Assembly (NCBI GenBank): GCA_963929525.1
Contig: CAWVJB010000010.1
Span: 1,302-65,301 of the forward strand
Source of the DNA: Bacillota bacterium
Lineage (GTDB): Bacteria > Bacillota > Clostridia > TANB77 > CAG-508
Length of the DNA: 64,000 nucleotides
Direction: 5' to 3'
Shown: piece after piece, positions 36,419-39,729 of the stretch
How the letters are laid out: each line of letters begins with the position of its first letter
Numbering within the stretch: the first letter of the stretch is position 1
Made by a program: the position numbers and the translations under genes
Notes under the pieces: generated by a model
The model's database searches: none
What the model was told of the DNA's origin: nothing
The model's input: the letters and a program-made list of their open reading frames with translations, nothing else

Positions 36419-36621
36419 TTATACTTGTTTCCATATTGATAAATTTTCTCCTTCCTCATAGTACATCGAATTTGGAAAAGAATTGTTATTTGACTAGGCA
36501 AACAAATTTTAAATTTATGAGACGTGCTTTTTGCACATTGATTAAATTTAAAATGCAGTTTAACAACGTCAAATGGCAATTATTTTTTAAATTATTACTA
36601 TGTTTATATTATGAAAACAAG

Positions 36622-36762
36622 TTATTTAGGATTTTGTGTTTTGAATTCTAACTCTTCTTCCTCTTTATTGCAAGTCTTTTCTTGTAAATATATTGGAAGT
36701 AATAATTCCATTAGTTCTTGCAATGTTTTTCCTTCGTTTGAATAACTTCTTACTACATTCAT
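36622..36762 (-). CDS. 46-aa ORF upstream of the recombinase (not in ORF track)
   Basis: Sequence MNVVRSYSNEGKTLQELMELLLPIYLQEKTCNKEEEELEFKTQNPK, with a GAGGTGG RBS just upstream. Function unknown; a recombination directionality factor is only a guess. Confidence 0.35.
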   Translation of the reverse strand: MNVVRSYSNEGKTLQELMELLLPIYLQEKTCNKEEEELEFKTQNPK

Positions 36763-36813
36763 GTCCACCTCTTTCTTTTTTAATGTATATGTCAAAATAT
36801 ATAATTTATTACT

Positions 36814-36847
36814 TCAAAAAACAGATATAGATCATTTCTATATCTGT
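36814..36847 (-). terminator. Rho-independent terminator on the minus strand
   Basis: ACAGATATAG-7-CTATATCTGT stem. Read on the minus strand it is followed by TTTTTT. Confidence 0.5.
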
Positions 36848-37212
36848 TATAACCAATCAAAAAAGAGTTCAGCACTTTTGGCTAAACTCCGTATTTTATA
36901 TTGGTTAATTTTTGTATCACACTTTTCTTACATAAATGTCTAATACACTATTTTTAATACTGTATTAGTAGACTTTTTGCTAACACTTTTATTGCATAAC
37001 CACACTATACAATATTTGATAAACATTGTACTTTGCAACTTTTTGCTAACAAATTTTTTATATAAGAAATCTGTAGAGAATTTTTTATTTCTCTACTTTA
37101 TGTCCCCCCTATATATGGATTTTTTTGCGTTGTCAAGACTTCCCTACAAATATTTAGGGAAGTTCTCCTTATTGATATTGATTTCATTAAAATATAATGC
37201 TATAATTTAATT

Positions 37213-37285
37213 GGTACCATAGCCAAGGAGGTAAGGCAAAGGTTTACATGAGCCTTGAGCATTGGTTCGAATCCATTTGGTGCCT
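37213..37285 (+). tRNA. tRNA-like gene with tRNA-Cys-like body and aberrant 8-nt anticodon loop (possible pseudo-tRNA)
   Basis: The acceptor stem GGTACCA/TGGTGCC has one G-U pair. U8 is present, the D arm is GCC-AAGGAGGTAA-GGC and the T arm is ATTGG-TTCGAAT-CCATT. The discriminator is U and no CCA is encoded. The anticodon stem AAGGT/GCCTT closes the loop TTACATGA. Confidence 0.5.
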
Positions 37286-37291
37286 TCATTT

Positions 37292-38899
37292 TTATTTTAT
37301 TCTTTCAAATAATGGCTCAACACCATTTATTTTTTTGTTTTTTTCTACTTCAATATACTTCCATGAAGCATTGTTTATATCTAATAAATCTCTTACTTTT
37401 TTTGATGATGTAGGCATAAATGGTTCATATAAATTAGCTAAATTTGCCACTAAATTACTACATGTATATATTGTATTATTAAAATTATCAATATTCTCTT
37501 TTTGTTGTTTCCATGGTTGCTGCTCTTCATAAAATTTATTTCCATCTTCAACAAGATTTCTAATAATTGCAATTGCTTTTCTAAACTCAAGATTTTCAAT
37601 AGCTCGTCCTACTTCAATATAAGCATTTTCAATCTTATTTTTAAATTCAACATTCATTTTCCCATTTGGAATTGTTTCAAGTCCTTTATATTTTAAAGTT
37701 CTATTAATAAGATTTCCATACTTATTAACAATTTCGGCATTACAAGTAGCAATAAATTCTTCAATAGAAAAATTACTATCTTTTTTTTCTGGTCCATTTC
37801 CTATCAAATAGTACCTTATCATATCAGAATCATATTTATCTAACATATCTCTTATCGTAATACCATTACCTTTTGACTTTGAAATTTTTTCAGAATTTAT
37901 ATTGAGATATTGTGTCGCAATCATATAATCTGGTAATCTATAATTTTCATCTAAAGCTAATAATAAAGCTGGCAATATGATAGTATGAAATGTAATATTA
38001 TCTTTTCCATGAGCCATATATATAGAATTATTTTCATTATTTTTCCAAAATTCTTCCCAATTAAGATTCCTTTCTTCACATATTTTTTGGCAAGCTGTTA
38101 CATAACCAAGAACAGCTTCAATCCATACATACATTTTCTTATCTTCGAAACCTTTTATAGGGATATCTACACCCCATTCTAGATTTCTAGTTACCGCTTT
38201 TTCTGGTAACCCTTCTCTTAGATACTTTTCAGTCTCATTTTGAGAGCTTATTCTCCAATTACTTTTTTTACTTTCAACATATTTTTCTATTTGATTTTGT
38301 AAATTTCCCAAATCCAAGTATAAATTCATATTTTCTTTTGCTATTACTTTATTCCCACATTCAATACACTTTGCATTTAGTAAATCCTCTTGTTTAGGTT
38401 CATATCCACAGTCACACATATCTCCTTTAGTCTCATTTCCACAAGAAGGACATTTTAATATAACTTCTCTATCAGCAACAAATTTCGAACATTTGTCACA
38501 ATATGGTTGTAAATCCTTTTTTGCATAAATATATCCATTATTATACATTTTTTTAAATAATTCTTTTACTTTTTCCTTATGGTATTCATCCTCTGTTTTT
38601 GTATATAAATCATAAGAAAATTGCATATCTTCAAAACATTTCTTAAATTCTTTATGGTATGACTCTGCTATTTCTTTTGGAGTTCTATTCTCTTTTTTTG
38701 CTCTTATTGTTATGGGTGTTCCATGACAATCTGTTCCTGATACATATAATACATTATCACCTATTTGTCTAAAATACCTTGCCATAACATCTCCAGAAAT
38801 CAAACCTGCTATATGTCCAATATGTAATGAATTATTTGCATATGGCCATGCTCCACCAATTAATATATTTCTCTTTTTTTCTTTATCTGCGTTTCCCAT
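37292..38899 (-). CDS. metG: methionine--tRNA ligase (short form with zinc knuckles, no C-terminal Trbp111 domain)
   Basis: HIGH-type motif NNSLHIGHIAG, KMSKS-type motif KISKSKGN, and Cys clusters CDKC...CPSC and CIEC. Confidence 0.9.
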   Translation of the reverse strand: MGNADKEKKRNILIGGAWPYANNSLHIGHIAGLISGDVMARYFRQIGDNVLYVSGTDCHGTPITIRAKKENRTPKEIAESYHKEFKKCFEDMQFSYDLYTKTEDEYHKEKVKELFKKMYNNGYIYAKKDLQPYCDKCSKFVADREVILKCPSCGNETKGDMCDCGYEPKQEDLLNAKCIECGNKVIAKENMNLYLDLGNLQNQIEKYVESKKSNWRISSQNETEKYLREGLPEKAVTRNLEWGVDIPIKGFEDKKMYVWIEAVLGYVTACQKICEERNLNWEEFWKNNENNSIYMAHGKDNITFHTIILPALLLALDENYRLPDYMIATQYLNINSEKISKSKGNGITIRDMLDKYDSDMIRYYLIGNGPEKKDSNFSIEEFIATCNAEIVNKYGNLINRTLKYKGLETIPNGKMNVEFKNKIENAYIEVGRAIENLEFRKAIAIIRNLVEDGNKFYEEQQPWKQQKENIDNFNNTIYTCSNLVANLANLYEPFMPTSSKKVRDLLDINNASWKYIEVEKNKKINGVEPLFERIK

Positions 38900-38924
38900 G
38901 TATTAACCTCCTTATAATACTGGA

Positions 38925-38953
38925 ATTATACCATAGAATACATTATTTTTCAA
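38925..38953 (-). promoter_or_regulatory. sigmaA-type promoter of metG
   Basis: On the minus strand: TTGAAA, a 17-nt spacer, then TGgTATAAT (extended -10). This leaves a short leader with a GGAGG RBS and no room for a T-box. Confidence 0.55.
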
Positions 38954-39027
38954 TAAATTTCCAAATTTATATATTTTTAAATTGACCCCATTTATTTATT
39001 ATGATATTATATTTTTAAATACTTGTT

Positions 39028-39516
39028 ATGATGGGGGAAATGAAAGCATTAATTAGTGTTTCAGATAAAAAAGGAATAGTTGACTTTACAAAATATCTGT
39101 CTTCTTTGGGAATAGAAATTATTTCTACTGGAAGCACCTATGACTTACTAGTAAAGTCAAGAATAACAGTCACTCATATTTCTACCTTGACATCTTATGA
39201 TAAACCTATAAATTCTATTATAAAAACTCTTTATCTTGAAATATATGCTGGAATTTCTGTGAATCGAAGTAACCAAGAACAAATGAATCAATTAGAAAAA
39301 GCTAATATATCTCCTATCGATTTTGTAATTGTTAATCTTTTTCCATTTGAATCATTACTAAATAATTCTCAACTATCCATTGATTATTGCTTAGATTTCA
39401 TTGATATAGGTGGTTCAACTATGTTAAGAAGTGCCGCTAAAAGTTATAAACATATTGTTGTTGTTTGTGATCCATTCCAAAATCCTAAAATAACTTGTTT
39501 TCATTTTCTATCATAA
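39028..39516 (+). pseudogene. remnant of the PurH N-terminal MGS-like / IMP cyclohydrolase domain
   Basis: ALISVSDKKGIVDF...STGST...IDFVIVNLFPFE...IDIGGSTMLRSAAKSYKHIVVVCDP is colinear with the PurH N-terminus, but conserved positions are altered. Similarity ends after VVCDP and the ORF stops 10 nt from the element edge. Confidence 0.6.
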
Positions 39517-39525
39517 AAGTAATTG

Positions 39526-39729
39526 TTACCAGGCACAATTCATGGTTAATGCTACTTTATTTTCATTTGTTTCCACTTTATATATTGGTAAATATTTTTC
39601 ACTAGTTGCAACAGTTTCAATTGTTTTCTTTCCTTCTGTTAATGTCCCTGCTATACAAAATAGTAGTATAACAGCTATAATGGATATACAATATGTATAT
39701 ATTTTTTGTTTATTAAATATGACAAACAT
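39526..39729 (-). CDS. pdaB: polysaccharide deacetylase PdaB-type, 5' segment of a split gene
   Basis: GGAGG lies 7 nt before the ATG at 39729. A signal anchor is followed by YLPIYKVETNENKVALTMNCAW and then TAA. IYKVETN..KVALT matches the B. subtilis PdaB N-terminal region as I remember it. Confidence 0.8.
   Translation of the reverse strand: MFVIFNKQKIYTYCISIIAVILLFCIAGTLTEGKKTIETVATSEKYLPIYKVETNENKVALTMNCAW

Follow-up and report, generated by a model that had tools for sequence, protein, structure and literature searches.

The elements known to interrupt sporulation genes are decayed prophages or large islands. In skin (sigK of B. subtilis and C. difficile) and SPbeta (spsM), a large serine recombinase splits a sporulation gene into co-oriented halves, precise excision restores the reading frame, and a small directionality factor is expected (PMC5025042, PMC4191935, PMC5499854). 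The gin element of gerE in Bacillus cereus (GirC/GirX) is non-phage; it combines a large serine recombinase with a very short, motif-less recombination directionality factor (RDF; GirX, 42 amino acids), and its horizontal spread was inferred, as it is here (PMC5595907). We describe an element that splits pdaB in a 64,000-nucleotide stretch of DNA, hereafter the window, from a Bacillota bacterium (Clostridia; TANB77; CAG-508; assembly GCA_963929525.1, contig CAWVJB010000010.1, positions 1,302 to 65,301), compared with 269 contig loci fetched for the purpose and given L-numbers below. It resembles skin and SPbeta in its recombinase and co-oriented gene halves, and gin in its non-phage character and its candidate RDF of 46 amino acids. 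Unlike skin and SPbeta, it is far smaller, lacks phage genes and carries swappable cargo that includes aminoacyl-tRNA synthetases and a tRNA; unlike gin (28.6 kb, three recombinases, restriction-modification genes), its cargo is translation-related. It is a minimal, excising, horizontally moving version of a gene-intervening element, and in the literature searched we found neither pdaB nor a GH25-LysM gene, a second target described below, as the target of such an element. We read its methionyl-tRNA synthetase (MetRS), with a probability of roughly 0.55, as an additional mobile copy that came from the host lineage and gives extra or alternative MetRS capacity.

Both halves of pdaB lie on the minus strand and can be joined in frame (..ALTMNCAW* with ..NCDW NADDV..), where intact orthologues read ALTMNCAWEPDD. 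The 3' part matches Pfam Polysacc_deac_1 (1.9e-26), is 67% identical to the intact PdaB of L001 and has PdaB as its top NCBIfam family (TIGR02764, 188 bits, under the cut-off of 237), while the 5' part is 51% identical to the N-terminus of the L001 protein, including ALTMNCAW; the neighbouring CwlD scores above its own NCBIfam cut-off. Translation and Pfam domains thus bear out the split pdaB and the 516-residue large serine recombinase of a preliminary description made from the sequence alone. The insert measures 4,727 bp, counting one copy of the core, and about 5,445 bp in an undeleted form; its recombinase gene stands at one end, 62 nucleotides from attL. With a slash marking the point of exchange, attR reads AATTGTGCCTGG/TAACAATTAC and attL AAATTGCGACTGG/AATGCAGATG, with a common core CTGG on the gene strand. 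In the Logan assembly of run SRR17381648, contig L089 has a length of 5,475 bp, with a terminal overlap of 30 nucleotides. It contains the junction AAATTGCGACTGG/TAACAATTAC (at greater length, ..AAAGAAATTGCGACTGG/TAACAATTACTTTT..), in which the left, recombinase-bearing end is fused to the right, far end. L089 is an excised circle carrying attP; the element excises as a circle.

The preliminary description also saw the insert as a recombinase element with housekeeping-like, non-phage cargo, and this view holds; PHROGs assigns a phage function to the integrase alone. A phage origin was rejected: IMG/VR contained nothing closely related to MetRS, tRNA or recombinase, and the best match of the recombinase in phage records is 38%. 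PADLOC found no defence system in the window cargo, and only a weak candidate match for NUDIX genes of sister elements. GC content is about 26-30% throughout the window, without a compositional break at the insert.

Recombinase orthologues 77-91% identical to that of the window occupy the same position in pdaB in L105, L106/L107, L108/L109, L134 and L269, each preceded by an open reading frame (ORF) of 45-47 amino acids. In L266 and L267/L268, the recombinase is 96% identical to that of the window at the amino acid level and the core 92-97% identical at the nucleotide level. The L266 element lies in pdaB, and its host genes are far more diverged (SSB 79%, PdaB-C 71%, p168 31%). The L267/L268 element splits a gene for a GH25-LysM muramidase with SafA-like LysM repeats (L267:4380-4460 and L267:10640-10700), with junctions CGTGG/TAACAATTAC and GCGACTGG/TAATGTCTC, and its excision would restore ..QYTDRG/NVSGIDGSVD..; because a 96%-identical recombinase splits this gene, at least two genes serve as targets of a single recombinase lineage. 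In L105, L106, L108 and L134, recombinase and SSB identities do not go together, and pdaB is intact in most related species, which together argue for horizontal spread to a conserved target. Homology to the window stops at 37138-37141 in all sister elements compared, and an ORF of 145 amino acids resembling ribbon-helix-helix (RHH) proteins, which lies at the far end of longer forms of the element, recurs intact in L268 and so belongs to the backbone. The core (element ends, recombinase, 46-amino-acid ORF, about 330 nucleotides of non-coding DNA and the far-end RHH-like ORF) has spread recently between species; the housekeeping-like genes in the slot between it and the far end vary from host to host (Table 1). 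An aminoacyl-tRNA synthetase is present in two of the six known cargo sets, so that the exchangeable slot has twice received a gene of this kind.

Apart from the recombinase, four items had been named in the insert of the window (a MetRS gene, a tRNA-like gene, a 46-amino-acid ORF and an ORF similar to the N-terminal domain of PurH), and all four are present. The MetRS matches Pfam tRNA-synt_1g (4.6e-131) and NCBIfam metG (TIGR00398, 481 bits against a cut-off of 336), with the class I motifs HIGH (as HIGH) and KMSKS (as KISKS), two zinc knuckles (CDKC/CPSC/CDC/CIEC) and no C-terminal tRNA-binding domain. Its nearest PDB structure is 1rqg (P. abyssi, 3e-103), followed by 5gl7 (human cytosolic) and the E. 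coli enzyme, with S. aureus, Brucella and Thermus MetRS1 far behind. Under the published definitions of MetRS1 and MetRS2 (PMC8165550), it is an ordinary two-knuckle MetRS2. The gene had been described as intact, with a near-consensus promoter and no T-box leader, and these points stand: the promoter, TTGAAA-17-(TG)gTATAAT, is the best sigma-70 match in the region (11 of 12 positions, upstream TG present), about 25 nucleotides separate it from the ATG, and no T-box or other leader or regulatory Rfam family was detected in the MetRS region even at E<=1.

MetRS2 is the common chromosomal type in this uncultured gut Clostridia order, with synteny conserved in dozens of metagenome-assembled genomes, so that the type alone is no sign of a foreign or resistant gene. 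The window enzyme belongs to a star-like subclade (80-88% identity, all against all) with L001, L005 and L007-L011. By its flanks, L001 is of the same genus (MetRS 85%, SSB 83%, RluD 77%, PdaB 62-67%), and L005 retains an ancestral neighbourhood (Zip, RF, SbcCD) common to a more distant clade. This clustering with the host genus suggests that the gene is native to the host lineage rather than foreign. The preliminary description had set two observations against a mobile cargo: metG branching with the host lineage, which is what we found (L001), and recombinase-free related strains with metG, tRNA and purH-like gene in this place, of which we found none. Across strains the MetRS is 99.8-100% identical, and strain diversity amounts to 0-2 single-nucleotide polymorphisms per gene, too low for dN/dS. 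No residue separates tRNA-linked from tRNA-less relatives, or the window enzyme from apparently chromosomal ones, and no resistance-type substitutions were seen; specialisation of the MetRS for the unusual tRNA described below was rejected for lack of diagnostic residues. A scan of genome contigs with the window MetRS gave a best match of 88%, with no genome of this species among the returns.

Mobile or second MetRS genes have precedents. Plasmid-borne metG, detected here as MetRS2 in Bacillus, Paraclostridium and Pediococcus, and the second MetRS2 of some Streptococcus pneumoniae likewise place a two-knuckle enzyme on a mobile element in a Firmicute, and MetRS2 enzymes are insensitive to MetRS1-directed inhibitors (PMC8165550). 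Unlike these, the window MetRS is only 43-45% identical to the plasmid enzymes. Loci with two MetRS genes were found in related contigs (L002, L026, L063, L056). Synthetase genes are classic carriers of resistance to synthetase inhibitors. An extra copy on the element would mean that synthetase genes can move among uncultured gut Clostridia by way of small recombinase elements.

We propose that MetRS and tRNA would be expressed constitutively from the integrated element in vegetative cells and in the forespore. In the sporulating mother cell, the 46-amino-acid protein would serve the recombinase as directionality factor, and recombination of attL with attR at the CTGG core would restore pdaB (..NCAW/NADD..). 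Since the circle still carries metG, the mother cell would not lose the gene. The MetRS would be a normal active enzyme, with the tRNA kept alongside.

The principal alternative is that the element carries the sole, essential metG of its host, an addiction in which loss of the element from the germ line would be lethal and the element would be locked in. The mother cell would then tolerate excision, the circle and the existing protein lasting until lysis. Several observations weigh against an additional copy or suit the two readings equally well. Within the 64-kb window, tblastn with close and distant MetRS queries hit only 37295-38899, and an extra copy from the same genus would give no obvious resistance advantage. 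The MetRS falls within the clade of the host genus and is about as diverged as host core genes, the element is present in every contig of this species read, and MetRS and tRNA are intact while the adjacent IMPCH-like and RHH genes, discussed below, decay; each of these would equally fit a sole copy. Among the loci fetched, none showed the restored attB junction of this species, and all contigs of the species read carry a split pdaB, with no intact one found; the timing of excision, furthermore, would follow skin and gin by analogy only.

The neighbourhood of pdaB bears on the same question. A metG lies directly upstream of pdaB-p168-ssb in several relatives, as MetRS2 in L001 (L001:8001-10575) and as a single-knuckle MetRS1 in L148-L153 and L175 (for example L149:6343-8758), and this looks like in-place replacement of one type by the other. 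Given this old synteny, an element resident in pdaB would have had a natural source of metG at hand, and in favour of a sole copy such an element could have absorbed its neighbouring housekeeping gene. The element-free L001 retains metG beside an intact pdaB, and no element remnants were found around that metG. However, the core is a recent arrival on the scale of host divergence, and what else is found in the slot is dispensable. In L110 and L128, the closest relatives, cwlD-pdaB is intact and no metG lies within 8 kb, which implies that the ancestor kept metG elsewhere, and the native copy would have had to be lost later. A sole copy thus appears possible but on the whole unlikely; were it true, a developmentally excised element would have acquired an essential translation gene and with it a simple means of addiction.

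Within the cargo of the window, MetRS does not stand alone. The PurH-like gene (below termed IMPCH-like, for IMP cyclohydrolase), MetRS and the tRNA, for which ARAGORN gives the anticodon as acat, occur in the same order and orientation in L010 (MetRS 87%) and in L002/L003/L004 (MetRS 83%). The stretch colinear with L010 begins at 37160, a short way upstream of the tRNA promoter, and extends to 39473, with 82.7% identity over 2,328 nucleotides. Compared with L010, L002, L009 and L001, the window MetRS gene shows only 50-57% identity at four-fold degenerate sites, a saturation which indicates that these lineages separated anciently. The cargo is therefore an old three-gene linkage block, each gene with its own sigma-70-type promoter.

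In L002 and L010 the block continues into an archaeal-LeuRS/MetRS-like catalytic core of 466 amino acids, a PP-loop amidotransferase, a MoaA-like radical-SAM enzyme, a hydrolase, a protein of unknown function and a DUF523 protein, and L002 adds a second, deeply branching MetRS on the opposite strand. This composition and the colinearity could mean that the block is the head of a biosynthetic cluster, perhaps for an aminoacyl-nucleoside-type product, of which MetRS with or without the tRNA would be an orphan self-resistance module. A stand-alone IMPCH-like protein has a precedent in ForH of the formycin pathway (the PDB 6nko match), and the sister element of L266 carries GNAT with a tryptophanyl-tRNA synthetase (TrpRS). 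Such a pairing recalls the acetyltransferase-plus-synthetase defence against aminoacyl-adenylate mimics, and mobile resistant synthetases are a known paradigm (mupA, MetRS2). However, none of the extra cluster genes of L002 and L010 is found in the window, the window MetRS is indistinguishable from apparently housekeeping relatives, the enzyme that looks like the extra copy in L002 is the divergent MetRS-B rather than the window type, and the IMPCH-like gene has no catalytic Tyr and is being lost in this species. We consider a cluster remnant improbable.

The preliminary description spoke of a tRNA-like gene, which is present and was under-called: it encodes a genuine tRNA, strongly conserved and derived from tRNA-Cys, whose anticodon loop is expanded. 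It scores 46 bits against Rfam RF00005 (gathering score 29), and its cloverleaf fold is standard, T-loop (UUCGAAU) and D-loop (G18G19) being canonical. The anticodon loop is UUACAUGA, 8 nucleotides long, and ARAGORN reports 'tRNA-??? (acat)', with no isotype, for all 18 copies. Its nearest relatives are the tRNA-Cys(GCA) genes of L047 and L165, with which it has in common the GGYACCA acceptor, U73 and an A13:A22 D-stem; unlike them, it has a different anticodon loop and TCA where those genes encode CCA. It departs from a full tRNA-Cys in that its expanded loop holds ACA, which would read the Cys codon UGU, and CAU, the MetRS identity triplet, rather than GCA. An origin from tRNA-Gln, considered for a similarity of the D-arm, was ruled out, tRNA-Cys being closest among the tRNAs of related contigs. 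The gene is preceded by a promoter, TTGATT-17-TATAAT (37178..37206), whose -10 box is conserved in L002 and L010. Its identity to the copies in L002 and L010 is 96-97%, and among the 14 strain contigs that carry it, 100%. Conservation at 96-97% where synonymous sites are saturated implies that the tRNA is maintained by selection and functional. It is a rare natural bacterial tRNA with an 8-nucleotide anticodon loop, and a candidate for non-standard decoding. Its 3' trailer (37286-37310) overlaps the last MetRS codons on the opposite strand; since transcription of MetRS meets its first terminator (37096..37073) only past the tRNA, the 3' untranslated region of the MetRS mRNA would be fully antisense to it.

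Anomalous tRNAs encoded beside, or served by, a particular synthetase are known from ProRSx/tRNAProX of Streptomyces and from the yeast mitochondrial pair tRNAThr1/MST1, with a conflict between body and anticodon or, in tRNAThr1, an 8-nucleotide anticodon loop (PMC10404621, PMC4267643). These precedents would be consistent with a dedicated pair in which the MetRS charges the tRNA through CAU and the tRNA reads UGU or a quadruplet such as AUGU, resulting in programmed Cys-to-Met mistranslation or a +1 frameshift. The tRNA abuts the MetRS stop codon in three anciently diverged lineages, with an invariant loop, a conserved promoter and strong purifying selection, and its identity is hybrid, with U73 and a Cys-type D-arm but a CAU/ACA loop. 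Unlike the enzymes of those precedents, however, the window synthetase is not a diverged paralogue, and no MetRS substitutions are specific to tRNA-linked loci. A canonical tRNA-Cys(GCA) is convergent to metG in L047, so that the two genes may be neighbours by inherited synteny and not through functional coupling. The tRNA is also absent from most members of the MetRS subclade, and the window copy has a U3-G70 pair and a 50:64 mismatch in the T-stem, both absent in others. A dedicated pair is accordingly doubtful in our view and ranks behind a cluster remnant. Still more speculative is a natural recoding tRNA on an excised mobile element, methionylated through CAU or cysteinylated through U73 and reading UGU or a four-base codon, with sister elements such as that bearing TrpRS making up a translation-altering family. 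If recoding did occur, the element family would shuttle translation-altering modules among gut spore-formers.

The third gene of the block, an ORF of 162 amino acids, had been taken for the decayed fragment of a bifunctional chromosomal purH, captured in an earlier host by imprecise excision. It indeed matches only the N-terminal domain of PurH and ends at the element edge, its stop codon 12 nucleotides from the att core CCAG; the loss of PurH similarity after VVVCDP was confirmed at 39473/39474, also against its own full-length homologues. Its probable true start is ATG 39040 (MKALISV), with an extended -10 promoter of its own. Strains of the same species carry either the window form of the element or a longer form, in which the purH-like gene is complete (192/196 amino acids, matching Pfam MGS and the start of AICARFT_IMPCHas) and the 145-amino-acid RHH-like ORF stands between it and the element end. 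The window differs from L087/L091 by one clean internal deletion of 729 bp, flanked by GGAT(T/C)AC microhomology, which removed the last 40 or so codons of the IMPCH-like gene together with the 145-amino-acid ORF and left 55 nucleotides of the element end intact. Those 55 nucleotides now encode the final 13 codons (FQNPKITCFHFLS) and the stop of the truncated ORF. The deleted form is present in part of the population. That the truncated ORF might read on through attP in the circle was rejected, as the junction has stops within a few codons.

The full-length homologue of 196 amino acids covers PurH residues 4-190, the whole IMP cyclohydrolase domain (PDB 9ou7, 5.6e-44), and also matches ForH (6nko). 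The gene in the window is 62-67% identical to its counterparts in L002 and L010. The full-length protein keeps the active-site Lys, Asp and Lys of PurH, with altered motifs (KTLHPxIHGG to KTLYLEIYAG, and NLYPF to N(L/F)FPF, with loss of the Tyr). A bifunctional PurH is not what was found: even the homologues of 192-196 amino acids have the N-terminal domain alone, with 204 bits against a cut-off of 402 for NCBIfam purH. The same short gene is divergent to MetRS in two other species. Because the full-length relatives are stand-alone domain proteins and the internal deletion explains the truncation, the ORF is not a captured bifunctional purH. Against that origin, the full-length form ends where the IMPCH domain ends, no AICARFT remnant lies downstream in sister strains or in the two other species, and the deletion also took a backbone ORF between the gene and the element end; we regard capture as hardly credible. 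From these comparisons, the ORF is a recently truncated, divergent, stand-alone IMPCH-like gene. ForH and stand-alone PurH N-domain proteins likewise consist of a complete MGS-fold IMPCH domain (about 190-215 amino acids) without AICAR transformylase; unlike them, the window copy is without its last 40 or so residues, and its PurH motifs are altered. In L091 (L091:7282-7872), the IMPCH-like protein matches phrog_30501, a phage family of unknown function, end to end (3.8e-36, 196-position profile).

The remaining part of the core lies between the recombinase and the cargo. The 46-amino-acid ORF has a strong ribosome-binding site, AGAGGTGG, and is 58-93% identical in sister elements; no Pfam or PHROG family and no homology to known RDFs was detected. 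By analogy with GirX, its product is the likely candidate for an RDF. The block upstream (GTAATAAATTATATATTTTGACATATACATT..AGAGGTGG) is identical or nearly so in five species despite variable surroundings, and has a CATA-type -10 rather than a sigma-70 -10, which is no more than suggestive of a sporulation sigma (sigma-E/K) promoter. Between the tRNA and this ORF, about 420 nucleotides are free of ORFs. The conserved non-coding part of the core, about 330 nucleotides, is 80-95% identical in L106, L108, L266 and L267 and contains a TTGACA-17-TATAAT-type promoter (weaker in the window), two GTTAGCAAAAAGT repeats, the palindrome ACAATnnnnATCAAATATTGT and, besides the terminator already mentioned, another at 36890..36864; it could be a small RNA or an operator region.

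Table 1. Features of the element in the split pdaB (window coordinates), and cargo carried by sister elements
Feature	Position	Strand	Basis or content
pdaB 3' part	34232..34801	-	Reads ..NC(D)W/NADDVDKIL.. in frame to stop; called ORF 167 aa, ATG 34735
attL core CCAG (CTGG on gene strand), left copy	34802..34805		Comparison of attL, attR and attP (circular contig L089)
Left element end (P arm), core to recombinase stop	34806..34867		92% identical in sister elements L105, L106; abuts right end in L089 circle
Large serine recombinase, 516 aa	34868..36418	-	Pfam Resolvase + Recombinase + Zn_ribbon_recom; PHROG integrase 2.4e-98
46-aa ORF	36622..36762	-	Present in all sister elements, directly upstream of recombinase
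Promoter-like block and ribosome-binding site of 46-aa ORF	36763..36812	-	Alignment across 5 species
Conserved non-coding part of core	36813..37138	-	Nucleotide identity to sister elements
Start of cargo block, including tRNA promoter	37160..37212	+	L010 colinearity starts at 37160
tRNA	37213..37285	+	Rfam RF00005, ARAGORN
MetRS, 535 aa	37292..38899	-	Pfam, NCBIfam and PDB matches
MetRS promoter	38925..38953	-	Promoter scan
162-aa MGS-domain ORF	39028..39516	+	Pfam MGS 2.6e-10
IMPCH-like homologous portion of 162-aa ORF	39028..39473	+	Similarity stops just past VVVCDP
729-bp deletion junction	39473..39474		Alignment with L087, L091
Right element end (P' arm)	39474..39528		Identical in long-variant strains; 89% in L108; joined to left end in L089 circle
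attR core CCAG, right copy	39529..39532		Junction comparison
pdaB 5' part (..KVALTMNCA)	39533..39729	-	W codon in core; stop at 39526-39528
L266 cargo	L266:184-1993		RimI-like GNAT + full TrpRS, 332 aa (TIGR00233, 366 bits); sigma-70 promoter, no T-box
L106 cargo			TehB-like methyltransferase
L108 cargo			NUDIX + RepA_N fragment
L267 cargo			NUDIX-GNAT, MNT/HepT, His_Phos_1, HAD
L269 cargo			Guanylate-kinase-like set

Some further observations concern related loci and assemblies. Just upstream of cwlD-pdaB, the nearest element-free relative (L110, SSB 89%) carries a pair of unrelated large serine recombinase genes (L110:4717-7806), with 30-36% identity to the recombinase of the window. In 23 of 48 sample blocks, the window MetRS was found on contigs of only 2-5 kb; a mixture of integrated with excised forms, or of long with short variants, would interrupt assembly at the ends of the element and could account for such short contigs. 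Finally, islands bracketed by two MetRS2 genes on opposite strands occur in L002:8001-17046, L026:9953-16903, L063:5019-14173, L080:9953-17774 and L033. They pair a MetRS2 of the common type with one of a deeply branching 'B' type (identity about 51%), which is truncated in L080 and L033, and their interiors differ, with aminoacyl-tRNA synthetase-like, PP-loop and radical-SAM genes in one and PLP-decarboxylase, aminotransferase, radical-SAM and GNAT genes in another.

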